The notes under the pieces: model-generated
Told to the model about the DNA's origin: nothing
The model's database searches: none
Seen by the model: only the letters and a program-made list of their open reading frames with translations
Shown here: piece after piece, positions 1,540-37,606 of the stretch
Layout of the letters: each line of letters begins with the position of its first letter
Numbering within the stretch: the stretch's first letter is position 1
DNA from: an uncultured Rhodobacteraceae bacterium
GTDB taxonomy: Bacteria > Pseudomonadota > Alphaproteobacteria > Rhodobacterales > Rhodobacteraceae
DNA: 64,000 bases
Direction: 5' to 3'
Assembly (NCBI GenBank): GCA_947495795.1
Contig: CANMAI010000013.1
Coordinates: 48,157 to 112,156 of the forward strand
Made by a program: the position numbers and the translations under genes

Positions 1540-2475
1540 ATGTTCAGATCTTTATCATCGATTGTCTTTTCTCTGGTTCTTTCTGGAAGTGCAGTCTTTT
1601 CAGATACGGCAACTATCGCCACCACGGCAGAGGGAACCTCGCTGCATTACATCGCTCTGGCGCTGACGAAGACGAGCGATGAGGTGGCGGGTCTGGATCT
1701 GCGCCCGAGGCCTTACAAGTCGGCGGGGCAGGGTGCTGTTTTCGTGAACAAGGGTGAGGTGGATTTCGGGCTTCACAACGTGATTATTCTGCGTGAGGCG
1801 TATCTTGGGCAGGAATTTTATGAAGGCAAGCGGCTGGAAAACCTGCGCGCTGTGGCGCGGCTGATCCCCTTTCAGGTGACGTTTGGCGTGCAGGGGGATT
1901 CTGATATCCGCACCATTGCCGATATGCGCGGTAAGCGTTTTCCGGCAGGTTTCGATTCCACAGCTTTCGGGGAACGGCTTTACGATGCTCTTCTCGGCAC
2001 GGCGGGCCTGAGTTATGCTGATGTTGATCAGGTAAAGGTTTCCGATTGGGCGGCGCTGGGTAAGGAGTTTGTGCGTGGCAATCTGGATGTGGGCGGGCTG
2101 GTTGTGGGCTCAGGCTCTGCGGCGCGCTATGAGCAGCTGGTGAAGGGGTATCGCGGCATTTCGCTGCCGGATGGGCCCGGGGTTGAGGCCGGTTTGCAGG
2201 AGAAATTCCCGTCGAGCCGTCTTGCTGTGGTGGAGCCCGGTGAGGGGCTTTCCGGTATTCTTGAGCCGATAACAGTACTTGAATACGACTATTGGCTTTT
2301 CGCGCACAAGGACACACCGGATGCGGCGGTGACCGGGTTGCTGCAAAGCCTGACGGAGGGCAAGGATGAGCTGATCCGCATTCGCAAGGATTTCCGGGAC
2401 TTTGATCCTGAGGCGATGTATCAGGATATTGGCGTGCCGTTTCATCCGGCGGCTGAGGCCTTCTATGCGAAATGA
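1540..2475 (+). CDS. TAXI-family TRAP transporter solute-binding protein
   Basis: 311-aa ORF with an N-terminal signal peptide (MFRSLSSIVFSLVLSGSAVFS). Size and architecture match TAXI (Imp-like) periplasmic receptors. Its stop overlaps the start of a fused TRAP permease. Confidence 0.7.
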   Translation: MFRSLSSIVFSLVLSGSAVFSDTATIATTAEGTSLHYIALALTKTSDEVAGLDLRPRPYKSAGQGAVFVNKGEVDFGLHNVIILREAYLGQEFYEGKRLENLRAVARLIPFQVTFGVQGDSDIRTIADMRGKRFPAGFDSTAFGERLYDALLGTAGLSYADVDQVKVSDWAALGKEFVRGNLDVGGLVVGSGSAARYEQLVKGYRGISLPDGPGVEAGLQEKFPSSRLAVVEPGEGLSGILEPITVLEYDYWLFAHKDTPDAAVTGLLQSLTEGKDELIRIRKDFRDFDPEAMYQDIGVPFHPAAEAFYAK

Positions 2476-4316
2476 CGGCCTCTAAGGCCTGGCTGAACGC
2501 GCTCTTTCTGCTCGCAGGGTCGGTGGCCCTTGTTGGCCCGGTATTGCGCGAGATCTGGCCGGGCAACCCTCTGACAGGTGTGCTTTCACTGGAGCAGTTT
2601 TTGGCGCTGGAGCTGCATGCTGCACTGCTGGCGTTCTGGGCGCGCCGCGCATCCTTTGGGAAGCGATGGTTGCATATCCTCGGGCCGCTTCTGCTGGCCG
2701 GAGCGGCCTTTGCCTCAGGCTTCTGGATGATCCGCTTCTTTGGAACGGTGGAGGCTGTATTTCTCACCCCAACGGCGCCCGTGATTGGCTTCGGGGTGAC
2801 CACGATTCTACTGGTACTCGGCGCGGGCATCGGTGCGGCTGGTTGGCCGCTGATCGCAATTGTGGCGAGTGTTCTGGCCTTCGGCTTTCTGGGCCAGTTT
2901 GCCTTTCTCGGGGCCACTGTTCCGCCGACTAGCCTGCCCAGTTTCATCACGTATCTCTCCTACGGCTCGGACGGGCTCTTCGGGCGTGCGCTTGATATCA
3001 TCACGAACCTGGTGCTGATCTTCGTGATTTTCGGTGTCTGTTTCGAGGTGGCAGGCGGCGGGCGGGTGATTGCCAATATCGCGCTGCGCTGTGCATCGCG
3101 AAGCCGGGCCAACGCGATAAAGGCCTGCGTGATTGCATCGGGCCTCTTTGGTACTGTCAGCGGTGCCGCCACATCCAATGTGGTGACATCCGGCACATTC
3201 TCCATCCCCAGCATGCGCCGCATCGGAGTGCGCAATGAGACGGCGGCGGGGATCGAGGCGGCTGCCTCCACTTGCGGGCAGATCATGCCGCCCGTTCTCG
3301 GTGCAGCGGCCTTCTTTCTGGCGGAACTGGCGGAAGTGGCATATTCCACCGTCGTCATTGCCTCGATCGGGCCTGCGCTGGCCTGCTATTACGCCTTCTT
3401 CAGGCAGGCAGATCTGGTGCCACTGGACGCTGGCGGAGAGGACGGCGCGGAGGCTCCCGAGCCACTGCGTGCTGTGTGGCTTCTCTATATGCTGCCGCCT
3501 GCCGCGATCATTTCCCTCCTTCTTCAATCGAGCGCATTTGTATCTCTGGCAGCCATCGCGGGCACGGCTACTTGCCTTCTGATCGCGGTGCCGCTGCAGG
3601 GCCTTATTCCGACATTGCGACTGTTGCGCAACAAGATGGCGGGCCTGATCCTGAGCGTCGTGAACCTTGTGATCGTTGCGGCCTCCGTTGGGCTGCTTTT
3701 GGGCGTGCTTTATTCCACGGGGCTTACCGTCGCTGGTGCCGTGATGATCGGCAAGATCGGGCAGGAGCATTTGCTGCTGGCGCTGCTTCTTACCGGGTTC
3801 TCCGCGTTTGTACTGGGGATGGGAGTGGCAACCGTTGGCGTCTATATCGTGGCCGCCACGCTGCTGACGCCGGGGTTGATCGAGGCTGGTATTCCCGTTC
3901 TGGCAGCACATTTCTTTGTGCTTTATTGCGGCATCCTTTCGTTGATCACACCACCCATCGCGTTTGCCTCACTGGCGGCCAGCGCGCTTGCAAAATCCGA
4001 TTTCACCGCGACATCGTTTGCCGCGATGCGCTTTGGCTGGATACTTTTTGTGATCCCCTTCGTTATTGCACTTTCGCCTGGGCTGCTGATGCTGGGAAGC
4101 TGGATGGAGATCGCCACGGCCTATCTCACGACCTTTGTTTTTGTTGCAGCGACTACTGCGCGTTTGGGCATTGCGCTGAAACTGGCGCTGATGGGCCTGT
4201 CGGCTTCGGCGATACTCTGGCCCGGAGCAGACTGGCAGGCGGTACTGATCGCTGTATGTGTTGTCGGATTTCTTGGCACGCGGTCCCACATGGCGCTCAG
4301 GCGCGCCTCCACTTGA
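2472..4316 (+). CDS. TRAP transporter fused permease (TAXI-type 4TM/12TM fusion)
   Basis: 614-aa highly hydrophobic polytopic protein. ATGA overlap with the upstream TAXI binding protein. The length fits fused DctQ/DctM-type TAXI permeases. Confidence 0.75.
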   Translation: MTASKAWLNALFLLAGSVALVGPVLREIWPGNPLTGVLSLEQFLALELHAALLAFWARRASFGKRWLHILGPLLLAGAAFASGFWMIRFFGTVEAVFLTPTAPVIGFGVTTILLVLGAGIGAAGWPLIAIVASVLAFGFLGQFAFLGATVPPTSLPSFITYLSYGSDGLFGRALDIITNLVLIFVIFGVCFEVAGGGRVIANIALRCASRSRANAIKACVIASGLFGTVSGAATSNVVTSGTFSIPSMRRIGVRNETAAGIEAAASTCGQIMPPVLGAAAFFLAELAEVAYSTVVIASIGPALACYYAFFRQADLVPLDAGGEDGAEAPEPLRAVWLLYMLPPAAIISLLLQSSAFVSLAAIAGTATCLLIAVPLQGLIPTLRLLRNKMAGLILSVVNLVIVAASVGLLLGVLYSTGLTVAGAVMIGKIGQEHLLLALLLTGFSAFVLGMGVATVGVYIVAATLLTPGLIEAGIPVLAAHFFVLYCGILSLITPPIAFASLAASALAKSDFTATSFAAMRFGWILFVIPFVIALSPGLLMLGSWMEIATAYLTTFVFVAATTARLGIALKLALMGLSASAILWPGADWQAVLIAVCVVGFLGTRSHMALRRAST

Positions 4317-4448: not shown

Positions 4449-6056
4449 TTGAACGACATGTTCTTTATTGAATTCTGCTTTTTTCTGACGCCCAAGGCTA
4501 TATGCGCTTTCGGAACTGCTGATCCGGACATGCTGGCTGTGCTAGAGCTTTCGTCTCCCAAGGGCTCTGGTTTTAAGGCGACGCCAGTGTGGTTTGAACG
4601 TCAGGGCCTGAAGAATCCGAAGGCCAAAGCGTTTATGGCTGTTTTTCTTAATGAGCCGGGGTTCGATCTTGATCGAAATATGGAGCTGAAGGCGGCCCAC
4701 AAGACGATAAAACTGTCTTCCAACCGTTTGAGTGCGGATGGAGCGAAGTTTGGAGAGAAAGCCAAGGAAAACGCGCTCAACCATCTGCTCTACGGGGTTG
4801 CTGCTGGCGATCTGCCCCAGCCGTCTCCGGATCTGGCTGTCGCCCTGCACGGGCGGATGGCTGGAAGGAACCAGATGCGTGGGGATTTTGAGTATTCTGC
4901 AATCAACATCGGCTCGGCAATGGTGGTGAATGGGCAGGACGCGGGGCTGGTTGGCGGATGGCACCTTGCCTGCCGGGAGAGCACATCAGAGCCCGCGCTA
5001 CTGTGCGTTGGGCCCGCCTCCGCCGCTCCTGTGGAGCTTTTTCTGAAATCCGTTCCCCGATCAGACCTTGAGCGCTTCAAACCCAAATATCCCGTGACTT
5101 CCAAGGATGGGTTTTGCGGAATTCTACCTCTCGGCGGCAGTTCGCCGGGACCGATTTTCGTGGTCGGGCTTCTGAAGCGACCGGGGCGCTGTCACAGGGT
5201 GGCGATCAAGGCCGAAGTGGTGGAACCGGTTGTGATGACGACGCGGATCCAAAAACTTCAGAAGCTGATGGGATCTGTGCACGCCTCCGAGCGGTTGGAC
5301 ACATTGGTCAGTACCGATGGTATGACGATTGGTTTGCAGTCGGAGGCAATCCGGCCAGTGGGGGACTCCGCGACAACTCTGCTCATCCTTGTTCATGATG
5401 CACCTGACACCGATCTGCGTGAGATCCTGAGAATTTGCAGCGCACGGTTGCCCGGGCCTAAGATATTGCATGTTCTGCGGAACTCACCCTCCTCCAAACT
5501 CCGCGCTGCCCTCACCGGTGCTCTGCGCGATGCGCCTGAGCACTGGATCGAGATGTTGGAGCCTGCTGATAATCAAGACGAGGTGGCGCTGACGCGCGGA
5601 GCAGAGATTGTGTGCTTTGCCCAAAGTTCTACTTTGCTACAGTTCGACGGGGTGGAAACAGCCTTGAGTGACTTGAGGGCGAAGCGTGTGGCTGCGTCTC
5701 TGATCCTGCATGACGAGATGGTCAATCTTTCCGAAGCGGCCCCTGCGAAACTGGATGCCGTGACCAATCTTGTGAATCCGAACTTCCCACTTTTCGCGGT
5801 ATTTAACGGAGATGTGTTTCGTGAGGTCAATGAGAAGATCCCTAACGGTTTTGCCTCGCTGGACGGCCGACTACGTGCTGTTTTGTGTATGTTGCTAAAA
5901 GCTGAACTGGCTCGATTTGCGTTTGATCGGAGCTTGAGCTTCTTTCAGGGAGAGGCAGAAGTGCCGCCAGAGCAGGCGGCAGAGCTTCGCCGTGCGGCCG
6001 CGAGTGACGCACCCTTGCTGAGAAAAGTCGGCCGAACTGGGGCCATGCTATCATGA
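4449..6056 (+). CDS. hypothetical protein (535 aa), first gene of a low-GC two-gene module
   Basis: Long uninterrupted ORF with non-repetitive composition. GC is visibly lower than the flanks (about 50-55% by eye). Its stop overlaps the start of the downstream GT4-sulfotransferase (ATGA at 6053-6056). I recognise no motif. Confidence 0.5.
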   Translation: MNDMFFIEFCFFLTPKAICAFGTADPDMLAVLELSSPKGSGFKATPVWFERQGLKNPKAKAFMAVFLNEPGFDLDRNMELKAAHKTIKLSSNRLSADGAKFGEKAKENALNHLLYGVAAGDLPQPSPDLAVALHGRMAGRNQMRGDFEYSAINIGSAMVVNGQDAGLVGGWHLACRESTSEPALLCVGPASAAPVELFLKSVPRSDLERFKPKYPVTSKDGFCGILPLGGSSPGPIFVVGLLKRPGRCHRVAIKAEVVEPVVMTTRIQKLQKLMGSVHASERLDTLVSTDGMTIGLQSEAIRPVGDSATTLLILVHDAPDTDLREILRICSARLPGPKILHVLRNSPSSKLRAALTGALRDAPEHWIEMLEPADNQDEVALTRGAEIVCFAQSSTLLQFDGVETALSDLRAKRVAASLILHDEMVNLSEAAPAKLDAVTNLVNPNFPLFAVFNGDVFREVNEKIPNGFASLDGRLRAVLCMLLKAELARFAFDRSLSFFQGEAEVPPEQAAELRRAAASDAPLLRKVGRTGAMLS

Positions 6057-8125
6057 GGACGGTGTTTGTTGCGCATTCTCACCCGGCGGTTCGGGTTGGC
6101 GGTGGTGAGCTGGCCGCTTACCAGCTTTTTCAACACATGCGCCGGAGTGGCAATGACGTGCGGTTCGTCGGGCTGACGAGCGAAGAGAAGGACGGCCCGC
6201 GCGTTTTCGGACCAAACCAGAATGCCGTTACATTCGATGAAGGCGATCATTGCGTGCGTGGCTTTGGCATGAATTCCCTGACAATGGAGCATGGCAACAT
6301 TGCCCGCGAAGACTGGCTCGTGCACTTTCTCCTGAAGCTCAATCCTGATGTCTATCACTTCCATCACTTCTGGAAAGTTGGGGCGAGTGCGATCCGTCGG
6401 TTGCGGAAGGCCCGGCCCGACGCGAAGATGATCTGTACGCTGCACGAGTTACTGGCGATTTGTGCCAATCATGGCCAGATGGTGAAAGCTGGCACGCGGG
6501 AGCTTTGCTACCGCGCAGAGCCAATTGCCTGTGCGGGGTGTTTTCCCGGGCAGTCGCCGATGGAGTTCAAGCTTCGCAGGATGCGGATGATGAGCATGCT
6601 CGATGCGTTCGATGCGCTGATCTCGCCAAGCGACTTTCTCAAGCAGCGTTTTGTGGATTGGGGCCTTCCGGAGGACCGGATCGAGGTGCTGGAAAACGGC
6701 TTGCCGACGACGCCCGACTTTCCAATGGAGGATGATGCCGAGCTTGCGCATAAAGCCCGGCGGTTCGCGTTCTTCGGGCAGGCAACACCCACCAAGGGCC
6801 TGAATATACTGGTCGAAGCGGCCCGAAGTATTGCCGCAACAAACCCTGCGATGGATATCGTGGTCGATGTCTACGGTGTGACAGCCGAGAAGTTTGCGAA
6901 GCTCTACCCGAGTGTTGAGGTGGGGCCGTTCATCTCCTTCAAGGGGCGTTATGCGCCACAGGATTGCGTCGGCTTGATGCGCCATTATGGGTGGATCGTG
7001 GTGCCTTCCGTCTGGTGGGAGAACTCGCCCCTCATCATTCAGGAAGCACGGGCGGCCGGTACCCCGGTACTCACCTCCGACATCGGGGGAATGGCGGAAA
7101 AGGGCCGCGATATGGGAGCGCAGTTTCGGGTGGGGGATGTTTCCTCGCTGCGTGAGCAGCTTCTGTCTCTTTACGGCGATGTGGATATCCTGAAAGCGAA
7201 AAAGGAGAGCATGGCGCGACCTCTCTTTCTGGATGCCTACGCCTCTCGATGGACAGAAATCGTAGAGGCAATTGAGCGCCCCGAGGCACCGGTGCGTTTG
7301 CCGCAGGAGCCTGTCAGCATGAAGGCGTGGAGGGAGACAAGTTACTCCGCTTTCGTGGAACGCGCGCAGGCAACTGCGGATCTCACGATATTTCAGCACA
7401 TTCCGAAGACCGCTGGCAGTTCACTTGTAACAGAGATTGGGCGCAATATCGGTGGATATCGCGGTATAAACATCAACTGGGACGACGTTTCGGAGAATAA
7501 AAGCACAAGGGATCTTCTGGCTTCTGCAGTGGAGCGTTTCATTGCGGAGTATGATCCGAAGGACCGCCGGACGGCTTCGGGCCATCTTCTCGGACCGGAA
7601 GTGAACAGGCTGATGGAAGCCATTCCGGGGGCGCGGGTCATCACCTTTCTGCGCGATCCGGTTAAGCGTGTGATCTCGGATTATCGTTATCAATGCACAC
7701 CGCAACACCCGCCATACAAGGAATTCATAGAGCGCTGCCCGACGATACAGGATTACCTGAACGGGCAGGGCGAGATGAACAAGATGTGGCTCTTTATGGT
7801 GGGCGAAGAGGATGATATCGAGGCTGGCCTCGCTTTGGCGGAAGAAAAGTATGCTTTTGTTGGCATCACCGAGCTCTACGACCTTTCATGCAATACATTG
7901 ATGCTCATGCACGGGCATAACGTCATGCCGAAATACACTGTGCGGGTGACTCAGGACCGCCCGGAAAACAAGGTGGTCGAGGATGATGAACTGCGCACGT
8001 TGATCGCTTCGAAAAACAAGAAAGACGTGGCGCTCTACAATCATTTCAGGGGGCTTCTGGAGCAGCACCAGAAGGGCTGGCAAAACTACCGGAGCTTCCT
8101 TGGGGGAGATGCCGCGAACCGCTAA
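6053..8125 (+). CDS. fusion protein: N-terminal GT4 glycosyltransferase plus C-terminal sulfotransferase (Sulfotransfer_2-like)
   Basis: N-terminal about 400 aa carries the GT4 EX7E motif (WWENSPLIIQEARAAGTPV). C-terminal about 280 aa carries the PAPS 5'-PSB motif (IFQHIPKTAGSSL) and the 3'-PB motif (FLRDPVKRVISDYRY). Confidence 0.7.
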   Translation: MRTVFVAHSHPAVRVGGGELAAYQLFQHMRRSGNDVRFVGLTSEEKDGPRVFGPNQNAVTFDEGDHCVRGFGMNSLTMEHGNIAREDWLVHFLLKLNPDVYHFHHFWKVGASAIRRLRKARPDAKMICTLHELLAICANHGQMVKAGTRELCYRAEPIACAGCFPGQSPMEFKLRRMRMMSMLDAFDALISPSDFLKQRFVDWGLPEDRIEVLENGLPTTPDFPMEDDAELAHKARRFAFFGQATPTKGLNILVEAARSIAATNPAMDIVVDVYGVTAEKFAKLYPSVEVGPFISFKGRYAPQDCVGLMRHYGWIVVPSVWWENSPLIIQEARAAGTPVLTSDIGGMAEKGRDMGAQFRVGDVSSLREQLLSLYGDVDILKAKKESMARPLFLDAYASRWTEIVEAIERPEAPVRLPQEPVSMKAWRETSYSAFVERAQATADLTIFQHIPKTAGSSLVTEIGRNIGGYRGININWDDVSENKSTRDLLASAVERFIAEYDPKDRRTASGHLLGPEVNRLMEAIPGARVITFLRDPVKRVISDYRYQCTPQHPPYKEFIERCPTIQDYLNGQGEMNKMWLFMVGEEDDIEAGLALAEEKYAFVGITELYDLSCNTLMLMHGHNVMPKYTVRVTQDRPENKVVEDDELRTLIASKNKKDVALYNHFRGLLEQHQKGWQNYRSFLGGDAANR

Positions 8126-8168
8126 GATCTCTTTTCAGAACAAGTGAGTGCTTTTGTCTGCTGCTCTG

Positions 8169-8188
8169 GCCAAAAGCGCTTGGCTTTT
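8169..8188 (+). terminator. putative rho-independent terminator after the GT4-sulfotransferase gene
   Basis: Hairpin gccaa-aagcgc-ttggc followed by TTTT, about 45 nt downstream of the stop at 8125. Confidence 0.45.
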
Positions 8189-9837: not shown

Positions 9838-10524
9838 TTACGTTGTCAGGAAGTAGTTTCTCTGCACCGCGATGGCCACAGCTTGTGTGCGGGTTTTGGC
9901 GTGCAGCTTGCCGCATGCCTTGATGGCCCGCTGCTTCACCGTGGATTCCGATATGCCAAGTTGTGTGGCGATTTCGCGTTGGCCGAGCCCGTCCTTCAGG
10001 CCACGCAGCACATCCAACTCTCCGGCTGTGAGGGGTGGCTTGTTCATAACCAACTGGCCCCACGTACAGAATTTTGCATCGACAAAGTCAATCTCCGCAT
10101 CCGTCAGTTCCCTATCCGAACGGGTGACGGTCAAAGTGGATGTTGTCGCATTATGTCTCTGCGAGAAAGCGGCACCATATTTCATGTTGAAGCGCCGCGC
10201 TTCTTTCATCACGTTCCGAACATCCGGCAGCCGGATCTCCGACCATCGCTTCGATCCGGTGTTCGAGAGAATCCATGCAAAGACCGGATCTGCAAAATAG
10301 TAGTTGCGTCGTTGATAGATCTCTGTCCATTCGGGGTGATAATTCTGGTACACATGCTCCGGCCCCCAGAACGAGAACCCGAACATCAGAAATAGGCCGG
10401 AGGGGGCAAGCTCGTGAATTTGTTCAATTTCTGATTCGAAGTTCGGGATAAGGGTTGTCAGCACTGCACTGGTCTTTCTTTCGTCAGCGGAAGCTATTCT
10501 CAGACTAGAGGTTTTTGCTTTCAA
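9838..10524 (-). CDS. LuxR-family transcriptional regulator (autoinducer-binding domain plus HTH), apparent solo
   Basis: C-terminal LuxR-type HTH (LTAGELDVLRGLKDGLGQREIATQLGISESTVKQ) and an N-terminal domain with conserved W/Y/D positions of AHL-binding domains. No luxI-type synthase is adjacent. Confidence 0.7.
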   Translation of the reverse strand: MKAKTSSLRIASADERKTSAVLTTLIPNFESEIEQIHELAPSGLFLMFGFSFWGPEHVYQNYHPEWTEIYQRRNYYFADPVFAWILSNTGSKRWSEIRLPDVRNVMKEARRFNMKYGAAFSQRHNATTSTLTVTRSDRELTDAEIDFVDAKFCTWGQLVMNKPPLTAGELDVLRGLKDGLGQREIATQLGISESTVKQRAIKACGKLHAKTRTQAVAIAVQRNYFLTT

Positions 10525-10894: not shown

Positions 10895-12331
10895 CTAGTT
10901 GTTTGCGCCGGTCCTGTCTTCTGCCTCGGCGGCTTCAGCTTCATCCTTGCTGGCCTGTTCGCCGCGGGCCCAGTAGCCATCATATTCTTCGCCCGAAGCG
11001 TAGATCATTTTGCCGAGGCCCTGGCGTTGGCCTTTGGTGAAGAAGCCCTGGTATTTATCGCCGTTTGGATAGGTGGCTGTGCCTTCACCATCAATCTCGC
11101 CGCCTTTCCAGCCGCCCTGATACTTGAAGCCATCTGCCATTGTGATGGTACCTGCACCCTCGCGCTGGCCTTGAGCAAATGTGCCCTCATAGACTGTGCC
11201 ATCTGCATAGGTTGCTGTACCGTCGCCGTCCCGAAGACCGTCTTTCCACTGGCCGGAATAGGTGAATCCGTCCTGATACGTCATCGTGCCGAAGCCGTGG
11301 TTGCGTGCGTTCTTGAACTCGCCTTCATAAACAAGGCCGTTCTCGTATTTCGCGATGCCTTTGCCTTCGATCACGCCATCTACCCATCCGCCCTCATACG
11401 AGGAGCCATCGGCATAGGTGATCTTGCCTTCGCCGTGGGCAACATCATTGCGGAAATCGCCTTCGTAGGTTGAACCGTCTGGGTAAGCTACCTTGCCTGT
11501 GCCCTCGATGCGGCCTTCAATCCATTCACCTTCGTAGCGGTAACCATCTGTGCCTGTGAATACACCTGTGCCGGAGCGTTGATCGGCCACGAATGTGCCT
11601 TCGTAAACATCGCCGGAAGCGTATGTTGCGATGCCTTCGCCCTCACGCTGGCCATTGACCAGGGTGCCTTCATACTTGTCGCCATTGGCTTGGATCAGAA
11701 CGCCTGTTCCGTTGATCTGCCCACCAGCCCATGCGCCCGTATAGGTGAGGCCATCGGGCATTGTGAGTGTGCCTGTGCCCGCGCGTACGCCCTGGGAGAT
11801 CTGGCCTTCATAGATGGCACCATCGGGATACACGATCTTGCCTTCGCCATCCTTGATGCCGTTCACCCATGTGCCGGTATAAACATAACCGTTTGGCGAG
11901 GTCATTGTACCGGTTCCGTGGTGGACTGCCTCCTGGAATTCGCCTTCGTAGCGCACGCCATTGGCGTAAACGGCCAGACCGCGACCGCCGATTTTGCCTG
12001 CGACCCATTCACCCTGATAGGTGCCGCCATCGGAGAATACGATCTTGCCTGAACCTTCCGGACGTCCGTTTACGAATGTGCCAGTGTAAACAGAGCCGTT
12101 CGGGAACTTTGCAACGCCTTGGCCTTCAATGCGGCCATCGATCCACTCGCCTTCATACTCATAGCCGTTGGGCAATGTGTATTTGCCGGTTCCGTGCTGT
12201 TTACCGTCCTTGAATTCACCCGTGTAGACCCCGCCCGTATCGTACTGCTTGGTCTGAACTCCGCCTTCCTGTGCGGAAGCCGCTACGGCTGTGACAAGTG
12301 TAGTACCAATCACAAAGGATATATTTTTCAT
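10895..12331 (-). CDS. secreted MORN-repeat protein
   Basis: More than 15 tandem MORN repeats (YxGxxxxGxxxGxG pattern: YTGEFKDGKQHGTGKYTLPNGYEYEGEW...). Sec signal peptide MKNISFVIGTTLVTAVAASAQ if started at the internal ATG 12331. The track ORF extends to 12427. Confidence 0.7.
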   Translation of the reverse strand: MKNISFVIGTTLVTAVAASAQEGGVQTKQYDTGGVYTGEFKDGKQHGTGKYTLPNGYEYEGEWIDGRIEGQGVAKFPNGSVYTGTFVNGRPEGSGKIVFSDGGTYQGEWVAGKIGGRGLAVYANGVRYEGEFQEAVHHGTGTMTSPNGYVYTGTWVNGIKDGEGKIVYPDGAIYEGQISQGVRAGTGTLTMPDGLTYTGAWAGGQINGTGVLIQANGDKYEGTLVNGQREGEGIATYASGDVYEGTFVADQRSGTGVFTGTDGYRYEGEWIEGRIEGTGKVAYPDGSTYEGDFRNDVAHGEGKITYADGSSYEGGWVDGVIEGKGIAKYENGLVYEGEFKNARNHGFGTMTYQDGFTYSGQWKDGLRDGDGTATYADGTVYEGTFAQGQREGAGTITMADGFKYQGGWKGGEIDGEGTATYPNGDKYQGFFTKGQRQGLGKMIYASGEEYDGYWARGEQASKDEAEAAEAEDRTGANN

Positions 12332-12594
12332 TTTCAACACTGCGTTCCCTCGTTCCACCTTTGGCATCCTACCGGCACTCGGCGTTTGACCATTCTCTCT
12401 GCTATACGCGCGCACTACCAAACACAAAACCCTCGGCTGCAGAGATTATGGGCAACCAAAATTCATGACAACGCTTTTTATCATCAATTATGGCCAGCCG
12501 ATGGCAAGACCGTAACGCTTCTGCGGCGATCTCACGCTATTGCCCCCAACAGCGCTTCAGTATACCGCGAGCAGGCCGGAAATGGGAGTGCGGA

Positions 12595-30900: not shown

Positions 30901-30973
30901 GGGTTTGTAGCTCAGTCTGGTAGAGCGCCGGGGTTTCCCGGAGGACGCAGGTTCGAATCCTGTCTGACCACCC
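30901..30973 (+). tRNA. tRNA-like element 1 (canonical D- and T-arms; anticodon arm and acceptor stem do not fold canonically)
   Basis: GGGTTTGTAGCTCAGTCTGGTAGAGCG (D-arm) ... GCAGGTTCGAATCCTGT (T-arm). The ccggg/cccgg anticodon stem encloses only a 4-nt loop (gttt). The 5' gggtttg does not pair with the 3' ctgacca. Confidence 0.4.
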
Positions 30974-31050
30974 TTGATGTAGCTCATCCTGGTAGAGCAA
31001 CGGACCATTAATCCGTGTGTAGTGGGTTCGATTCCCATCATCACTCGCCA
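30973..31050 (+). tRNA. tRNA-like element 2 (Asn-like scaffold; anticodon loop CCATTAA; 2 terminal acceptor mismatches)
   Basis: cttgatg ta GCTCATCCTGGTAGAGC a acgga CCATTAA tccgt gtgta GTGGGTTCGATTCCCAT catcact c GCCA. Acceptor pairs 5 of 7. Anticodon would be ATT with C33. Confidence 0.4.
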
Positions 31051-31429
31051 AATAGGCACCAGTTTTAGGTACTGGCTACATGTGACTAAAGGGCTTCGGG
31101 GCTGGCGTGCAGGCTGGCCCGGACGGGTGTGCCTTCGGGTGCATTTGAAAGGCTCGGCTTGCCCGGCATGTGCGCCGGTGAGGACTGATGGTTGCGGCCC
31201 CGGCGGGCCTGGCTTTGGGGCTTTTGCTTCGAGGCTCCGCTCGGTGGGCAAGGCTTCGGGGTGCTCCCTTCGGCTTTGCCTGTGGGTCCAACGCCCTCTC
31301 GTCTTTTGCCCGTGTGTGTGGCGGCTTCGCCGGCTCCGAAGTCTGCATTTCAATTCCGGTTGTAAGCCGGATTATCCGGGGGTGATTGTGCCCCAAAAAA
31401 CTAGCCGGATCGCCGGCGGAAAGGAGGAC

Positions 31430-32569
31430 GAGATGGAAAATCTTGTGAAAATGCTTCTCGGGTTTGAGAAGGTGATTGTGATGGAGAACACGCGCGCCGT
31501 TGTTTTGGAAAATGGCCAAGTGTCGCGCATCCTGAAGCCGGGCCTGTACTGGCTGCGCCGGAAAGATACGGATGTGGAGAGCCACAGCCTGAGCCGTGCG
31601 GAGTTTGTCTCGTCCTATGAGCGGGCGCTTGTGATGGAAAGGCCGGATCTGGCGACTGACCATCTGACCTTGATCGAGACCGGAGAGGATGAGGTGGCCG
31701 TGGTGCTGCGGGACGGGCGCATTCATGATGTGATGGGGCCGCAGATGCGAGCCGTGCTCTGGACCGATGCAGGGGCGTGGACTGTGGAGCGTATCGATGT
31801 AAGCGAGACGCTTGACGTTGATGCGCGTATGGCCACGCGATTGGCGCGGGCCGGGCAGACGGCGCGGGTTGCCACTTTTGAGGTGCCGGAGGCCCATGTT
31901 GGGTTGATGAGCCTTGAAGGGGCCTTCGACCGTGTGCTTGAGGCCGGGACGCATCGCTTTTGGGCCGTGGCGCGGAAGATCGACGTGAAGCTCGTCGATC
32001 TCAGGCGTCGGGTGCATGACGTTGTGGGGCAGGAGATCCTGACCAAGGATCGGGTGACGATCCGGGTGAACCTTGCGGCCGATTTCCGCGTGGCGGATCC
32101 GGTGAAAGCCGTAACGATGGTGAAGGATTTCGAGGAAGCCTTGCACCGGGCCTTGCAGTTTGCCTTCCGCAAAACGCTTGGAGCGCTGACGCTGGATGCG
32201 CTTTTGGCGGAGAAAGTGAGCGTGGATGCCGAGGCTGCCGCACTTGTGCGCAGCCAGATGGCGGAGATCGGGCTCGAGGTTGGTGAGATCGCCTTGAAAG
32301 ACGTGATCCTGCCGGGTGAGATGCGCGACATCCTGAACAAGGTTGTGGCTGCCCAGAAAGAGGCCGAGGCCAATGTGATCCGGCGCCGGGAAGAGACGAA
32401 CGCGACGCGCTCGTTGCTCAACACGGCGAAGGTGATGGCCGAGAACCCGGTGATGCTGCGCCTGAAGGAGCTTGAGGCTCTGGAAGGGATCGCCGCGAAA
32501 GTGGATACGCTGACAATCCACAACGGGACGGACGGGTTGATGAAAGACCTTGTGCGTTTGCGCGACTGA
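31430..32569 (+). CDS. SPFH/band-7 domain protein
   Basis: ATG 31430 preceded by a perfect SD (GGAAAGGAGGACGAG). Product carries SPFH-like features (MENLVKMLLGFEKVIVMENTRAVVLENGQV...), with coiled-coil and Ala/Glu-rich regions. The track ORF 31022-32569 reads through the upstream tRNA-like and spacer region and is rejected as the start. Confidence 0.65.
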   Translation, partial: EMENLVKMLLGFEKVIVMENTRAVVLENGQVSRILKPGLYWLRRKDTDVESHSLSRAEFVSSYERALVMERPDLATDHLTLIETGEDEVAVVLRDGRIHDVMGPQMRAVLWTDAGAWTVERIDVSETLDVDARMATRLARAGQTARVATFEVPEAHVGLMSLEGAFDRVLEAGTHRFWAVARKIDVKLVDLRRRVHDVVGQEILTKDRVTIRVNLAADFRVADPVKAVTMVKDFEEALHRALQFAFRKTLGALTLDALLAEKVSVDAEAAALVRSQMAEIGLEVGEIALKDVILPGEMRDILNKVVAAQKEAEANVIRRREETNATRSLLNTAKVMAENPVMLRLKELEALEGIAAKVDTLTIHNGTDGLMKDLVRLRD

Positions 32570-32717: not shown

Positions 32718-34916
32718 ATGGAGACCCTCATGAACGGTGATGGCGCAGATTTCGCAGCGGGGGCTTTGAGCACCTCTGGCAACCAGATTATCGATGCCGA
32801 AGGCAATGCGGTGGAGATCCGCGCGGTGAACTGGTTCGGGCTGGAAACAGATATCATGACGCCGCATGGGCTGTGGGCGCGGAACTGGCAGGACATGATG
32901 GACGAGATGGTGGAGGTGGGGTTCAACACCATCCGCCTTCCGTTCAGCCATGAAGCGATCGATGCGGCCACCCGCCCGGGCAACGGGATTGATTTCGGGC
33001 AGAACGCTGACCTGCAGGGGCTTTCGGCGCTGGAGATCATGGACAGTGTGATCGACTATGCCGATGAGATCGGGCTGCGGGTGATCCTTGACCATCACCG
33101 GAGTGATGCTGGTGCGGGGCCGAACGGGAACGGGCTCTGGTACACGGACGGGTATTCCGAGGCGGACTGGATCGAGATGTGGGAAGCATTGGCCGCACGC
33201 TACGGCGACAGCCCCGCCGTGATCGGCGCGGATCTGCATAATGAGCCGCATTCCGGCCAGTGGGGCGGTGGTGGCACGAACGATTGGGCGCGGGCGGCGG
33301 AGGCTGCTGGCAATGCCGTTCTGGATGTGGCGCCGGACTGGCTGATCCTCGTGGAGGGGGTGAGCAACTATGAGGGTGCCAACTACTGGTGGGGCGGGCA
33401 ATTGGCCGGGGTGCGAGACCGACCCATCACGCTGGATGTGCCGGGACGGCTGGTTTACTCGCCCCATGATTATCCGGCCTCCGTATTCGATCAGCCGTGG
33501 TTCAATGATGGTTCCAACCTCTTTGATGTATTCCGGGAGGCCTGGGGATTTATCTACGAGGAGGGGATTGCGCCCATTTTGCTCGGTGAGTTCGGATCCC
33601 GTTTGGAGACGGCGGCGGACAGAGCCTGGGCGGAGGCGATTACAGCGTATCTGGAGGGCGATTTCGACGGTGACGGTATCGTGGATATCCCCGATGGCGA
33701 TGGTGGCATGAGCTTTGCATGGTGGTCTTGGAACCCCAATTCCGGTGATACGGGCGGGATCCTGAACGACGACTGGACGACCTTTCGCCAGAATGCGGTG
33801 GAGCTGCTGGAGCCTTTGCTGGAAGGGCCTGATGTGGTGGCGCCGATGATCATGATCACTGGCAACACGGCAACCGGTGTGGCCGTTGGAGCCGATGGCG
33901 AGGTTTGGGCGACGCTTGAGAGCCAGACGGTGAGCAATGATGATGTGGCGTTTGATTTCGGGGAATTTAACGACAGCAGCTATTCGCTTGCGGGTACGGC
34001 AGAGGCAACGGCGGGCATTGGGGTGCGGTTCGGGCCGGAGAGTGCGAATAACCGGTTGGTGATTGCGACCACCGGCGAGGCATTGGGCACCGTTGCCGGT
34101 GTGACCATTGGCGGGCGGAACAATGTGGTGGAGACGGCCGGTGATATTTCAGGCGGTGATGCTGGTGTGGCTTTCACCGGTGCGACGGGGCGGAATATTC
34201 TGATCAACACAGGTACGATCTCTGAAACCGGAGCTGGCAATATTGCAGTGCTTGGCAGTTGGCAGCGCGATCTGGTGGAGAATGGCGGCGCTGTTGCAGG
34301 AGATGTGCGCCTTGGAGCCGGGAACGATACGTATCGTGGGCAGGACGGTACGGTTTCCGGCATTGTCTTCGGTGGCAACGGGAATGACGGGTTGCTGGGC
34401 GGAGCCCTTGGAGAAATGCTGAACGGCGGCAACGGAGATGACCGATTGGCAGGTTTCGGCGGAGATGATGTGCTTCGCGGCGCAGGTGGTGCCGATGTGG
34501 TTCTGGGCGGCGAAGGGAATGATCGTCTTTTCGGTGGGGATGGCAATGACAAGCTTAAGGGCGGTTTCGGTGACGACGTCCTTTTCGGCGGTGCAGGCGA
34601 TGATACCATGCGCGGAAGCAGCGGCGATGATCTGCTGGATGGTGGCGAAGGCTCGGATACGCTTTTCGGGAACGGAGGGGCGGATACTTTCCGGTTTCGC
34701 GCGGACTCGGGCAGCGATGTGATCGAAGGGTTTCAAAACAATCTGGACCGGATTGATCTGCGCCTGCTGGGGGTGGCGGATGCGGCTGCGCTGGAGGCGG
34801 CAATCGGTGTTTCGGGCGCGGATGCGGTGATTGATCTTACAGCGTTCGGTGGGGATGGGATGCTGACGGTTGCGGATAAGGCGGGCGCGTTGGATGCGGG
34901 TGATTTTCTGTTCTGA
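32718..34916 (+). CDS. glycoside hydrolase family 5 (cellulase-like) enzyme with C-terminal RTX calcium-binding repeats (T1SS substrate)
   Basis: GH5 catalytic region (IGADLHNEPH ... ILLGEFGS with the two catalytic Glu). Tandem GGxGxDxL nonapeptides (GGNGNDGLLGG, GGNGDDRLAGFGGDDVLRGAGGADVVLGGEGNDRLFGGDGNDKLKGG...). No N-terminal signal peptide, consistent with type-I secretion. Confidence 0.75.
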   Translation: METLMNGDGADFAAGALSTSGNQIIDAEGNAVEIRAVNWFGLETDIMTPHGLWARNWQDMMDEMVEVGFNTIRLPFSHEAIDAATRPGNGIDFGQNADLQGLSALEIMDSVIDYADEIGLRVILDHHRSDAGAGPNGNGLWYTDGYSEADWIEMWEALAARYGDSPAVIGADLHNEPHSGQWGGGGTNDWARAAEAAGNAVLDVAPDWLILVEGVSNYEGANYWWGGQLAGVRDRPITLDVPGRLVYSPHDYPASVFDQPWFNDGSNLFDVFREAWGFIYEEGIAPILLGEFGSRLETAADRAWAEAITAYLEGDFDGDGIVDIPDGDGGMSFAWWSWNPNSGDTGGILNDDWTTFRQNAVELLEPLLEGPDVVAPMIMITGNTATGVAVGADGEVWATLESQTVSNDDVAFDFGEFNDSSYSLAGTAEATAGIGVRFGPESANNRLVIATTGEALGTVAGVTIGGRNNVVETAGDISGGDAGVAFTGATGRNILINTGTISETGAGNIAVLGSWQRDLVENGGAVAGDVRLGAGNDTYRGQDGTVSGIVFGGNGNDGLLGGALGEMLNGGNGDDRLAGFGGDDVLRGAGGADVVLGGEGNDRLFGGDGNDKLKGGFGDDVLFGGAGDDTMRGSSGDDLLDGGEGSDTLFGNGGADTFRFRADSGSDVIEGFQNNLDRIDLRLLGVADAAALEAAIGVSGADAVIDLTAFGGDGMLTVADKAGALDAGDFLF

Positions 34917-34955: not shown

Positions 34956-36830
34956 TCAGCCGCGTTTCTTGTATCGTAGCTCGAAAACGCTGCGGTCAAA
35001 CGCGGGTTCATGCCCGTTTTCAATCCAATCCAGGGCTTCTTGCATGCTCATCGGATTGGCTATGCCGTGCCCCTGGAAGACACTGACCCCCATTTCTCTG
35101 AGTACGCTGGCCTGCTCTGCCGTCTCCACGCCTTCGGCCACGACCTTGCGGCCAAGCAGCAGGCAGAGATCGACAATCGCCTCAGAGATCGTGCGCTCGG
35201 CCTTGTTTTCCAGAAGATCGGCGATGAGAGACTTGTCTATTTTCACGAAATCGAGTTTCAACCGGGCGAGGTGGGCGAGGCCCGCATATCCAGTGCCAAA
35301 ATCATCCAGAGCGATTGCTATGCCCGCGTCACTCAGTGCAGCGATTGTGAGCGCGGCACCTTCATCGCCCTGATCGATGATGGTGGATTCAAGCACCTCC
35401 ACCACGATGGATTCCGGGGCGATGTTGCGCGCATCCAGCTCCCATTTCAGGTGATCCACAAAGTCGGGGCGTGCGAGTGTTGTGGGTGATATGTTGATCC
35501 CGACCGTCAGGCCGGTTTTTCCGAGACTATGAAGAGTGACAACCGCATCAAGTGACTTGCGGATCGCGATCTCATCCAGCGCGCCCATCATGTCATGTTC
35601 TTCGGCCATATCGAAGAACGCTGCTGGCGGCAGAAGCCCGCGGGACGGATGCTGCCACCGGATCAGGGATTCTAAGCCGCACGGCTCAAGCGTGGTTGCA
35701 TCGACGATTGGCTGGAACTCCATCTCGAAGGCCTCTTCGTGAAGCGATGTTTTCAGTGCGATCCCTTCGTGCTTGCGTTCCAGCGTGCGGGCCTTGAACT
35801 GCTCGTCAAAGCAGACGATCTGGCCACGACCGTCTTCCTTAGCGGCGTAAAGAGCCATATCGGCCTGACGCAGCAACTCATCAATGTCGTTTTGCCCGTC
35901 CTCGGATAACACCACGCCAATACTCGTACCGAAACTGATCTCGTGCCCCTCCCACAGCAGTGGCTGGCGTGTTTCATGCAGGATTTGCGTGCCGATCTGC
36001 TTAAGATCGGAAAAGCCGCGCACGCCAGGGCAGATGATGATGAACTCATCCCCGCCGATCCGGCAGACGAGATCATCCACTGAGACGGCGTTGGACATGA
36101 TTGTGGAGGCATGAACCAGCACGGCATCCCCTGCGGCATGGCCGATTTCATCATTGATCTGTTTGAAACGGTCGAGATCCAGAGCGATCAGGCCCACACG
36201 CCCGCCTTCAATTTGCGAGACGCGCAGCGCCTCCTCAAGGAAGCTGCTGAGCTTTACACGGTTGGCCACATTGGTGAGGCTGTCGCGCTCCGTCTCTGCG
36301 GTCAACTGGCGTTCCGCAATGCGCAGCGACTCTTCCCGCTGGACCTGCTTGGAGACATCCCGGCAGACGAGAACCACTTTGGCGGGCAGCCCTTCTGAAA
36401 CTTCTGCAAGAGCTAGATTCATCTGGTTCCAGAATTCCGTGCCATCCTTGCGGCGGTTGCGCATGATCTGAAGATTGTTGAACTCCTCGCTTTCGGGATC
36501 GTAGCGGAAGGCTGCAATCTGATCCGGGCTTGGTGTCTTGTTCGCCGGAAACAGGAAACTCTGAGGTTTCTTGCCCTGAAGTTCATCGAGATGATAGCCG
36601 GTGATCTTGGTGTAGGCCGGGTTCATCCACTCCACATGGCCCTCAAGATCCTGAATGAGGATCCCGTCGCTCGCATATTTTGCGGCAACCTGAAGCGCAT
36701 CACGTGGATTGATTGTGATGGCGCGCCGCGCCCTGATGCGGCGCAGCACCTTGTAAACAAGGCGCGTGCAGAAAACACCGAGCAGAAAGCCAGCACAGAC
36801 GAGTGCCGCAATTGCCGCGAGTGTTTCCAT
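34956..36830 (-). CDS. membrane-anchored PAS-GGDEF-EAL c-di-GMP signalling protein
   Basis: GGDEF motif (RIGGDEFIIICP), EAL-domain motifs (ESLIRWQHP, DDFGTGYAGLAHL, KIDKSLI), and a PAS segment. Start at METLAAIAALVCAGFLLG (ATG 36830). Track ORF extends to 37022. Confidence 0.8.
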   Translation of the reverse strand: METLAAIAALVCAGFLLGVFCTRLVYKVLRRIRARRAITINPRDALQVAAKYASDGILIQDLEGHVEWMNPAYTKITGYHLDELQGKKPQSFLFPANKTPSPDQIAAFRYDPESEEFNNLQIMRNRRKDGTEFWNQMNLALAEVSEGLPAKVVLVCRDVSKQVQREESLRIAERQLTAETERDSLTNVANRVKLSSFLEEALRVSQIEGGRVGLIALDLDRFKQINDEIGHAAGDAVLVHASTIMSNAVSVDDLVCRIGGDEFIIICPGVRGFSDLKQIGTQILHETRQPLLWEGHEISFGTSIGVVLSEDGQNDIDELLRQADMALYAAKEDGRGQIVCFDEQFKARTLERKHEGIALKTSLHEEAFEMEFQPIVDATTLEPCGLESLIRWQHPSRGLLPPAAFFDMAEEHDMMGALDEIAIRKSLDAVVTLHSLGKTGLTVGINISPTTLARPDFVDHLKWELDARNIAPESIVVEVLESTIIDQGDEGAALTIAALSDAGIAIALDDFGTGYAGLAHLARLKLDFVKIDKSLIADLLENKAERTISEAIVDLCLLLGRKVVAEGVETAEQASVLREMGVSVFQGHGIANPMSMQEALDWIENGHEPAFDRSVFELRYKKRG

Positions 36831-37000
36831 TTTTGTGCCCCTTTTTCTGCTGGGTGAGAGGTAGCCCACAACCTGAAAGGATGTATTAAGTTCCCTCCAT
36901 CTTGTCCCAGTTGGTTCACGGGAGGTGAAAGATTGACAAATGCCGCCCCGCCGGAGACAAGCTGGATGCGGGGCTATGCGCCTCGAAACGGGCCAGGTGA

Positions 37001-37606
37001 TTGATCTTGCAGGGTTTCCCATATGCGCCGCCGGGGCTGAAAATCGGACTTCTGGGAGGATCGTTTGATCCGCCGCATCGCGGACATCTGCTGATCACGC
37101 GGCGTGCACTGCGTCGCTTTGGGCTTGATCAGGTTTGGTGGCTTGTTTCTCTCGGCAATCCGCTGAAGCCGGAGCCGCCCGCTGCACTGGAGCGGCGAAT
37201 GGTGGCAGCACGGAATCTGGTGCGCCATCCACGGGTAAAGGTGACCGCGCTGGAGGTACGGCTTCGCACACGGTTTACGGCAGAGACGCTGGCGCGTCTG
37301 CGGCTGGTTTACCCGGGCGTGCATTTTGTGTGGTTGATGGGGGCCGATAATCTGGCCGGGTTCCACCGCTGGGATCGTTGGCAGACGATACTGGAAACGG
37401 TGCCTGTTGGCGTGCTTTCGCGGCCGGGCGAGCAATTGCATGCCGCCCTTTCGCCTGCTGCTCGGCTGTATGCAAATGCGCGGCTGCCCGCCGGGGCGGG
37501 GCGGCTTTTGCCTTTGCGCGCAGCGCCCGCATGGTGCCTGATGACGGGGCCGATGCTGGAGCAATCTTCCTCCGCCATTCGGGCCGCTGGCAGCTGGCAG
37601 CGGTAG
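37001..37606 (+). CDS. nadD: nicotinate-nucleotide adenylyltransferase
   Basis: [16 protein letters not shown] contains the (H/T)xGH nucleotidyltransferase motif. 201 aa. Confidence 0.8.

Follow-up and report, generated by a model that had tools for sequence, protein, structure and literature searches.

The 64,000-nucleotide stretch of DNA analysed here (the window), from an uncultured Rhodobacteraceae bacterium, contains two overlapping genes on the forward strand, the first encoding a protein that belongs to no named family (gene 1, the partner protein) and the second encoding a single polypeptide in which a predicted GT4 glycosyltransferase is joined to a predicted sulfotransferase (gene 2, GT4::ST). 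Both open reading frames (ORFs) described in an earlier note on this DNA, 4449..6056 (+) and 6053..8125 (+), are present, as is the ATGA stop/start overlap between them (6053..6056, +), which indicates translational coupling. The earlier note gave gene 1 as 535 amino acids (aa). This is the length of the longest ORF, which begins with a TTG at 4449, but the true start is most likely the ATG at 4458 (4458..6056, +), because the NCBI call (product P0001) and the start positions of the partner family, whose members begin at the equivalent residue in the family alignment, agree on it, giving a soluble protein of 532 aa. Gene 2 (P0002) encodes 690 aa. The ATGA overlap joining a long upstream ORF to a GT4 orthologue recurs in about 30 independent loci (Algicella has TGATG instead), so that the overlap is not due to chance, and the conservation of this coupling across loci supports the earlier view of the two genes as a functional unit. 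A hairpin followed by a T-run (8168..8185, +), found by a consensus scan only and located 43 nucleotides (nt) past the gene 2 stop codon, is the probable end of the transcription unit, while a promoter scan detected no sigma-70 promoter. Hydrophobic or transmembrane segments are absent from both window proteins, and also from the proteins tested in a related Paracoccus cluster (L012).

The N-terminal part of gene 2 (aa 1 to ~395; 6053..7237, +) is predicted to be a CAZy GT4 retaining glycosyltransferase of the GT-B fold. Over aa 15-376 it matches PF13439 (64.1 bits, cut-off 28.5) and PF13692 (51.9 bits, cut-off 27), and further GT4 matches are to PF00534 (45.7 bits, cut-off 26.4) and PF13579 (56 bits). 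The EX7E motif reported earlier is present as ENSPLIIQE within the C-terminal Rossmann domain (aa 323-331; 7019-7045, +), in a region that aligns with MshA. The nearest solved relatives, MshA and PimA, have in common with gene 2 the GT-B fold, both the N-terminal and the C-terminal Pfam GT4 domain, EX7E, and an N-terminal loop rich in glycine, but the similarity is very weak (E 2e-5 and 8e-4, respectively), and unlike these enzymes, the gene 2 domain is part of an uncharacterised set of orthologues, each with the partner gene in front of it. Membership of the anti-phage ‘GT4-conflict’ group was ruled out by the absence of PF20706 and PADLOC matches.

The C-terminal part of gene 2 (aa ~421-685; 7313..8107, +) is predicted to be a carbohydrate O-sulfotransferase dependent on 3'-phosphoadenosine 5'-phosphosulfate (PAPS). 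It contains a 5'-phosphosulfate-binding motif (5'-PSB), HIPKTAGSS (aa 449-457; 7397-7423, +), which aligns with the corresponding loop of HS6ST, and a 3'-phosphate-binding motif (3'-PB), RDPVKRVISDYRY (aa 534-546; 7652-7690, +), which begins with RDPVKRV (aa 534-540) and aligns with HS6ST and HS3ST. Between them lies a conserved SGH (aa 509-511; 7577-7585, +), the histidine of which is a candidate catalytic base. In an alignment with six relatives, PKTAGSS, one G-H pair (that of SGH) and the pattern R-x-P-x-x-R-x-x-S-D-x-R-Y are invariant, including the R, P, R and S of the 3'-PB. Full-length gene 2 scores, with matches lying in its last 250 residues, below the Pfam cut-offs for Sulfotransfer_3 (24.6 bits, cut-off 27) and Sulfotransfer_2 (19.3 bits, cut-off 22), and the isolated domain marginally passes the latter (22.7 bits). 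An AlphaFold2 (AF2) model of the domain, built from a shallow alignment of 3 sequences, has a mean predicted local distance difference test score (pLDDT) of 80.6, and all of its 50 best Foldseek matches in the PDB are PAPS sulfotransferases, with HS6ST and HS2ST at the top. A profile of the domain compared with PDB sequences also retrieves HS6ST (E 2.4e-6), HS3ST and HS2ST, with matches at both PAPS motifs. The earlier recognition of a PAPS-dependent sulfotransferase thus stands, and the motifs and model point to an O-sulfotransferase of the heparan-sulfate 2-O/6-O type.

The likeness to HS6ST and HS2ST, which are of the Sulfotransfer_2 type and provide the best fold matches (5t03 and 3f5f, TMq ~0.51), extends over the 5'-PSB, the 3'-PB and a C-terminal NxxDxxLY helix, and PAPS-dependent O-sulfation of sugars is the reaction of these enzymes and the predicted reaction of gene 2. 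However, HS6ST and HS2ST reside in the Golgi membrane of eukaryotes and carry no fused glycosyltransferase, and their identity to the gene 2 domain is just 16-18%. Very few bacterial carbohydrate sulfotransferases have been characterised, examples being NodH, KpsS and Stf0 (PMC11625862). NodH, Mesorhizobium loti KpsS, Sinorhizobium meliloti LpsS and Stf0 resemble the gene 2 domain in being bacterial, mostly alphaproteobacterial, PAPS-dependent and active on glycans, and they need a PAPS supply of the NodPQ/CysNC type, as do relatives of the window genes (reviewed in PMC11625862). They differ, judging by their descriptions, in being stand-alone proteins lacking a GT4 domain or a companion like gene 1. 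NodH belongs to PF13469 and Stf0 to PF00685 (PMC11625862), and the gene 2 domain passes the threshold of neither family.

The two domains of gene 2 are connected by a Pro/Glu-rich, flexible linker (aa ~400-420; 7250..7312, +), which marks the former intergenic junction: the initial methionine of stand-alone sulfotransferase relatives aligns just past it, and the first 18 residues of the sulfotransferase model have pLDDT below 50. The best 120 of 1383 gene 2 homologues, mostly from Paracoccus and other Rhodobacterales, are stand-alone GT4 proteins of ~410-450 aa with 41-55% identity. Full-length fusion relatives are a protein of Algicella marina (P0003, 682 aa, 51% identity) and P0098 (720 aa, 32% identity), the latter recovered from three independent assemblies, and a partial protein from a metagenome-assembled genome (MAG), P0004, runs from the GT4 domain into ‘…FHHIPKTAGSSL’. 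Because the fusion recurs in one complete genome, three independent assemblies and the partial MAG protein, a frameshift or assembly artefact was ruled out, and the single-polypeptide fusion proposed earlier is real. Judged by sequence searches it is also rare, and not a common annotated architecture: the window protein, P0003, P0098 and P0004 are the four examples found. A metagenome scan with the sulfotransferase profile yielded 75 loci, in which the relatives are stand-alone proteins of 250-360 aa and none is fused to a GT4; one of these loci has a 685-aa open frame, which bears no GT4 similarity. No published description of a glycosyltransferase::sulfotransferase fusion was found in the literature.

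The earlier note considered the gene 1 protein to have no recognisable motif. This holds at the level of family models, as the gene 1 protein matches no Pfam or NCBIfam family at E ≤ 0.01 and has no PADLOC match, and partner family members from Algicella, Paracoccus (L012) and L070 likewise lack a Pfam or NCBIfam GT2 match. It does not hold at the level of fold. An AF2 model from the family alignment (pLDDT 86; predicted TM score 0.81) and Foldseek comparison reveal two immunoglobulin-like (Ig-like) β-sandwiches followed by a C-terminal α/β domain with the Rossmann-like GT-A fold, separated by helical linkers. The first sandwich (aa 1-86; 4458..4715, +; model strands at 2-86) was recognised by Foldseek matches to tandem Ig domains. 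The second (aa 141-251; 4878..5210, +) conserves G167-W168, R201-x-D203-L204 and D217-G218-F, and the divergent GT-A domain occupies aa ~305-526 (5370..6035, +). A capsule-export protein or other known family was ruled out by the Pfam and NCBIfam scans and the fold matches. A search of the PDB sequences with the partner profile gave only insignificant matches to Med25, which are taken as chance. A word-indexed search of 5.8 billion proteins returned only the gene 1 protein itself, and a protein homologue search with the family alignment returned the query alone. A HMMER search of 1.84 billion representative proteins found 24 family representatives of ~520 aa, of which the named ones (Halovulum, Abyssibius and Oceanibium) are all annotated as ‘hypothetical protein’. 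The Algicella partner is 29% identical to gene 1 (E 7e-49).

Family motifs comprise GW…RxDL…DGF, one set per sandwich, and, in the GT-A-like domain, LxLDHDxxDxDLRDVLR after β1, LLR after β2 and F-A-R-S-S after β4. In gene 1 these appear as ‘LDHD’ (H313, D314), as ‘LLR’ (R341), where GT2 enzymes carry the uracil-binding Asp, and as ‘FAQSS’ at the GT2 DXD position. Because LLR and FARSS occupy these positions, the acidic uracil and metal/diphosphate ligands of GT2 enzymes are absent in the partner family. Gene 1 is more degenerate than its family, with Gln replacing the conserved Arg of FARSS, and its first β-sandwich is also degenerate, the GW and RxDL motifs being gone. Remote partners of the same length and layout retain canonical Pfam GT2 domains, with matches reaching 30-36 bits; these occur in L002-4 (an organism with F420 genes), in the freshwater contigs L033-35 and L052, and in the first of two modules in Acuticoccus. 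Single-sequence hhalign and BLAST comparisons of gene 1 with the GT2-bearing L002 partner were not significant. When the enlarged partner family was compared with the GT2-bearing partners by hhalign, the two were colinear over 501 columns (probability 91%, E 1.2e-7), with the family ‘LLR’ and ‘(R/Q)SS’ opposite ‘IDD’ and ‘HSD’ of the GT2-bearing partners, and an intermediate group gave a probability of 78% in the profile comparison; the homology is thus supportable only with larger profiles. We read the partner family as a probable GT2-derived protein with decayed catalytic ligands.

The top Foldseek match of gene 1 is poplar GalS1 (GT92), with GpgS and mannosylglycerate synthase (MGS) also among the best. 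GalS1 and the WbbL-like GT2 proteins represented by the L002 and L035 partners combine one or more β-sandwiches with a GT-A domain, as gene 1 does. By contrast, the gene 1 family lacks the DXD and the uracil-binding Asp, has no Pfam glycosyltransferase match, and is obligatorily paired with a GT4. The partner also diverges faster than the GT4, for example 43% versus 78% identity within Paracoccus, and between the window and Algicella 29% for the partner versus 51% for the GT4::ST. The metagenomic protein P0083 (549 aa, 3 contigs) carries, N-terminal to a GT4 orthologue, a fused stretch matching the partner's first β-sandwich and linker (31 bits, profile positions 4-121) but no GT-A-like domain. 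The fast evolution and the β-sandwich fusion fit a binding or specificity role, and the ‘acceptor-specific or scaffold’ role guessed in the earlier note is plausible for a protein modelled as Ig-like sandwiches and a degenerate GT-A domain. It is quite possible, though we favour it less, that the partner is instead a fully active second glycosyltransferase of the metal-independent GT-A type, the pair forming a three-activity line that makes a sulfated disaccharide unit. Such GT-A enzymes using basic residues exist, for example in GT14, and the cleft of the partner has conserved polar residues (H313, D314, R341, S390, D419 and the acidic residue in ‘TxEG’), while the remote partners of L002, L035 and L103 retain canonical GT2 domains. 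The replacement of the GT2 ‘DD’ and ‘HSD/DXD’ by ‘LR’ and ‘(R/Q)SS’, the lack of any Pfam glycosyltransferase match in gene 1, the fast evolution of the partner relative to the GT4, and the fact that P0083 retains no more of the partner than the β-sandwich argue against an active enzyme.

The partner-GT4 pair is conserved well beyond the window. The partner gene lies directly upstream of a GT4 orthologue in more than 35 loci from Paracoccus, other Rhodobacterales, Acuticoccus, Falsiroseomonas and metagenomes, and the two genes almost invariably share the ATGA overlap. A genome scan with a subset of the partner family alignment found 17 loci in Paracoccus and Plastorhodobacter, all 17 with a GT4 orthologue immediately after the partner. 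Conversely, nine out of nine look-ups starting from GT4 orthologues found a 497-586-aa ORF directly upstream with no Pfam match or a weak GT2 match, and most of these upstream ORFs score 183-584 bits with the hidden Markov model (HMM) of the partner family. The adjacency was also found in metagenome loci. Members with a source name are annotated just as ‘hypothetical protein’ or ‘glycosyltransferase’, and no description of the obligate partner family or of the membrane-free modular clusters was found in the literature.

The third component varies. A sulfotransferase or a pyruvyl transferase usually follows the partner-GT4 pair, sometimes together with PAPS-synthesis genes. In most Paracoccus loci and in a TARA contig (L100), a polysaccharide pyruvyl transferase comes after the GT4. 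One or more stand-alone sulfotransferases follow the GT4 in L009, L013, L078 and L088/89, two follow it in L035, and in L070 and L102 the sulfotransferase is upstream of the partner gene. In Acuticoccus sediminis (L103, 3286-11597), a 586-aa GT2-like partner, a GT4 and a sulfotransferase are followed by a 535-aa partner, a GT4 and a pyruvyl transferase, which suggests that partner, GT4 and modifier form a repeatable building block. Since the GT4 and sulfotransferase are neighbouring genes in some loci (L009, L013, L078, L088/89, L102, L103 and L035) and fused in others (the window, Algicella, L002-4 and P0004), they are linked in the manner of a Rosetta stone. In Falsiroseomonas tokyonensis (L105, 698-11360), a sulfotransferase, CysN/CysC, a CysQ-type phosphatase, a Branch protein (GT14-like) and two pyruvyl transferases adjoin and precede the partner-GT4 pair; this cluster contains a complete sulfation supply chain. 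CysN/CysC also adjoins the sulfotransferase in L037, L044, L029 and L054. This proximity of PAPS-supply genes to the sulfotransferase in relatives supports real sulfation, and the CysN/CysC and CysQ genes make a sulfated glycoconjugate, as suggested in the earlier note, the most sensible product.

In a further arrangement (L005-L022, L101, L104 and L106), the partner and GT4 genes, in this order, close a conserved membrane-free cluster that begins with genes for DUF6212, a GT2::GT4 fusion (~880 aa) and an uncharacterised ~184-aa protein, with the pyruvyl transferase of most Paracoccus loci coming after them. Clusters of this type occur in Ketogulonicigenium, Halodurantibacterium, P. suum and the majority of Paracoccus loci. 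A literature search on DUF6212 found nothing.

We consider it the best reading, with a probability of roughly 60%, that the window pair represents, in a local version that is partly fused, a three-part cytoplasmic module conserved in Alphaproteobacteria and consisting of the partner, a GT4 and a carbohydrate O-sulfotransferase. The domain identities, the fusion, the strict adjacency of partner and GT4 with their coupling, the variation of the third component and the lack of membrane segments are all observed, and the product is probably a sulfated glycan or glycoconjugate made inside the cell. In the mechanism we propose, the partner and the GT4::ST would be produced at a constant ratio and work together as a cytoplasmic complex, in which the β-sandwich/GT-A-like body of the partner would bind or present the glycan acceptor, and might itself attach the sugar that comes before, through non-canonical chemistry that needs no metal. 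The GT4 domain would then transfer a hexose from a nucleotide sugar, and the tethered sulfotransferase domain, with PAPS, would sulfate that sugar or its neighbour prior to release, such that the fusion would ensure one sulfate per transfer.

Several points weigh against this three-part module. The order of the genes, their coupling and a single domain fusion are the only grounds for the complex, and the activities of all members are predictions. The Pfam scores of the sulfotransferase are borderline (19-25 bits for the full-length protein; 22.7 bits, where 22 are required, for the isolated domain). The partner lacks a DXD, so that catalysis by it is putative, and in the window protein the family Arg is moreover replaced by Gln and the motifs of the first β-sandwich are lost. 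Finally, genes for PAPS synthesis, export or priming are absent from the window, as are the DUF6212, GT2::GT4 and 184-aa genes of the Paracoccus type.

Streptococcal GtfA-GtfB and Alg13-Alg14 are analogous pairs, in which an active glycosyltransferase is expressed together with a degenerate, non-catalytic protein of glycosyltransferase fold that provides acceptor binding or stability. The partners in those pairs have the GT-B fold, whereas gene 1 has a GT-A domain and is a putative interactor. Clustered glycosyltransferases and sulfotransferases, as in the window, are found in the Synechocystis synechan xss cluster (PMC8205485) and in the capsular polysaccharide (CPS) cluster of Vibrio sp. KMM 8419 (PMC11641403). 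In the latter PAPS genes are present, and the co-occurrence of glycosyltransferases and sulfotransferases is regarded as a hallmark of sulfated polysaccharide synthesis (PMC11641403). However, the xss and Vibrio clusters have Wzx/Wzy or ABC export and stand-alone sulfotransferases, whereas the window module has a fused GT4::ST and no membrane component. No priming transferase, Wzx/Wzy or ABC exporter was found among the window genes scanned or in the related clusters, although such genes may lie elsewhere in the genomes.

The acceptor may be a surface polysaccharide with export genes located elsewhere, an intracellular glycan of the α-glucan type or a small glycoside connected with the TRAP transporter. 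In Halovulum dunhuangense (L098, 7427-10269) and Oceanibium sediminis (L099, 7424-10314), a partner-GT4 pair without a modifier gene directly follows glgB-glgC-glgA-glgX-pgm on the same strand, and on plasmid pYEE4 of P. yeei the genes after the cluster encode a sugar-phosphate nucleotidyltransferase and GlgX. These contexts raise the possibility, which we hold to be rather unlikely, that the acceptor is a cytoplasmic α-glucan or oligosaccharide, resembling glycogen or analogous to the methylglucose lipopolysaccharides (MGLP) of mycobacteria, that is decorated with sulfate in the window organism and with a pyruvate ketal in most Paracoccus. The absence of membrane, export and priming proteins from every cluster, the resemblance of the paired β-sandwiches to carbohydrate-binding modules (CBMs), as in GalS1, and the presence of GpgS and MGS among the best fold matches are consistent with such an acceptor. 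On the other hand, glg genes occur in only 3 of ~35 contexts, a TRAP transporter takes their place in the window and in Algicella, export genes could be elsewhere in the genome, the window proteins give no CBM20 or CBM48 sequence signal, and bacteria are not known to contain pyruvylated or sulfated glycogen. A bolder extension, which we think unlikely, is that the clusters represent an undescribed membrane-free alphaproteobacterial system of a repeated β-sandwich/GT-A-like partner, a GT4 and an anionic modifier, producing an intracellular sulfated or pyruvylated α-glucan related to glycogen, with the partner as a glucan-binding pseudo-glycosyltransferase. If true, bacteria would here possess a counterpart to mycobacterial MGLP or to the phosphorylation of glycogen, and the glycan would be the first sulfated polysaccharide of a bacterial cytoplasm.

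While GT4 enzymes, PAPS sulfotransferases and clustered glycosyltransferase and sulfotransferase genes are known already (PMC8205485, PMC11641403, PMC11625862), a natural fusion of the two ties a sulfotransferase to one glycosyl transfer, which would make acceptor identification and in-vitro reconstitution tractable, and polysaccharide-sulfating enzymes are wanted for biotechnology (PMC11641403). The locus also yields a new Pfam-less family, with two Ig-like domains and a degenerate GT-A domain, which obligatorily accompanies a GT4 clade in several orders of Alphaproteobacteria, and the occurrence of the membrane-free cluster twice appended to a glycogen operon offers the testable possibility of a decorated intracellular glycan. 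Should the product be a mere variant of surface-polysaccharide decoration, the module would still provide a useful annotation for ~100 ‘hypothetical protein’ entries.

The genes preceding the pair encode a TAXI solute-binding protein (1540-2475, +) and a fused TRAP permease (2472-4316, +), with 81% and 67% identity to Algicella marina, respectively. The same four genes, TAXI, TRAP permease, a 563-aa partner and GT4::ST, form a syntenic block in Algicella marina, in which the flanking transporter genes are far more conserved than the pair, and beyond the block the neighbours differ on both sides. Between the permease and gene 1 there is a 141-nt gap, in which no terminator was detected. This arrangement would suit a small sulfated glycoside, osmolyte- or signal-like, as the product, with a substrate imported by the adjacent transporter, and two further facts agree with it: MGS, GpgS and MpgS, to which the GT-A domain is similar, are synthases of compatible solutes, and GT4 includes disaccharide-forming enzymes. 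We regard this reading as very unlikely, since the TRAP linkage occurs in two genomes only, the pairs of all other lineages lie in multi-glycosyltransferase clusters with pyruvyl transferases, typical of polymers, and the tandem β-sandwiches suggest a polymeric acceptor.

The earlier note further proposed that both genes are lower in GC than their flanks and form a horizontally acquired unit; in such a reading they would be an island sulfating a cell-surface glycoconjugate (lipopolysaccharide, exopolysaccharide or glycolipid). The GC contents of gene 1 (56.0%) and gene 2 (56.6%) are within one standard deviation (SD) of the window mean (58.0%, SD 2.1-2.3 for windows of gene size). This places them 7th and 13th from the bottom among 52 genes (z about -0.8 and -0.6), and GC is as low or lower over the 10 kb downstream (the 8-18 kb stretch). 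Of the 28 long genes, gene 2 has the most typical synonymous codon usage, and gene 1 takes 16th place. The inference of horizontal transfer from low GC therefore fails, as neither GC nor codon usage is atypical. No integrase, insertion sequence (IS) or tRNA is found at the borders of the pair, the flanks being the TRAP transporter genes and a DUF2254 gene, and the four-gene block is shared with another genus, with the adjacent TRAP genes 67-81% identical. An Rfam scan of the window found two tRNAs only, 23 kb from the pair, and a megablast search of the locus against plasmids gave no match. The pair is thus not a recently acquired island. Known bacterial carbohydrate sulfotransferases do act on surface glycans (PMC11625862, PMC11641403), and the module is patchy in distribution, plasmid-borne in P. 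yeei and P. liaowanqingii and placed in different neighbourhoods in different genera. With typical composition, clean borders and no Wzx/Wzy, ABC export or priming transferase gene nearby, a surface-sulfating island is nevertheless a quite unlikely explanation for the window pair.

The rest of the window is ordinary chromosomal DNA, with genes for GltX, class-I LysRS, UvrB, NadE, a photolyase and a BCCT transporter. GltX, the TRAP subunits, MatE and BCCT are singletons at 90% identity among ~15 billion proteins, the LysRS cluster is shared only with a ‘Pseudomonadota bacterium’ MAG, and the nearest match for the TRAP genes is Algicella marina. As its housekeeping proteins are singletons at 90%, the source is a poorly sampled lineage with no close sequenced relative. 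The two tRNA genes are adjacent (30901-31043, +; Rfam, 45-46 bits), and because the ORF at 31022-32569 overlaps the second of them, its true start is probably further downstream.

Another ORF, 42 kb from the pair (50012-51286, +; 424 aa), has a GC content of 53.4%, the second-lowest among long genes, and carries P-loop-like ‘HIGTEKTGTTSFQ’ and ‘FLRPQVDTAISLSS’. Over the N-terminal 258 aa it shares 25% identity (E 1e-19) with the product of a Paracoccus sp. T5 gene (L007, 10814-11836) that lies directly downstream of a partner-GT4 pair and has a weak Sulfotransfer_4 match. Possibly, the ORF adds a second sulfotransferase-like gene to this system. Downstream of the pair, a gene on the reverse strand (10895-12427, -) encodes a 510-aa protein with 14 MORN repeats and has the second most atypical codon usage (27th of 28). 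Beside it, a LuxR-type autoinducer-binding regulator (9838-10524, -) has the lowest GC of the first 16 kb, with no LuxI gene seen near it. Other genes include a GH5 cellulase fused to RTX calcium-binding repeats (32718-34916, +), a 764-aa pectate-lyase-like β-helix protein (43780-46074, +) and a PAS-GGDEF-EAL protein (34956-37022, -), all of which are related to polysaccharides or biofilms and unrelated in position to the pair.

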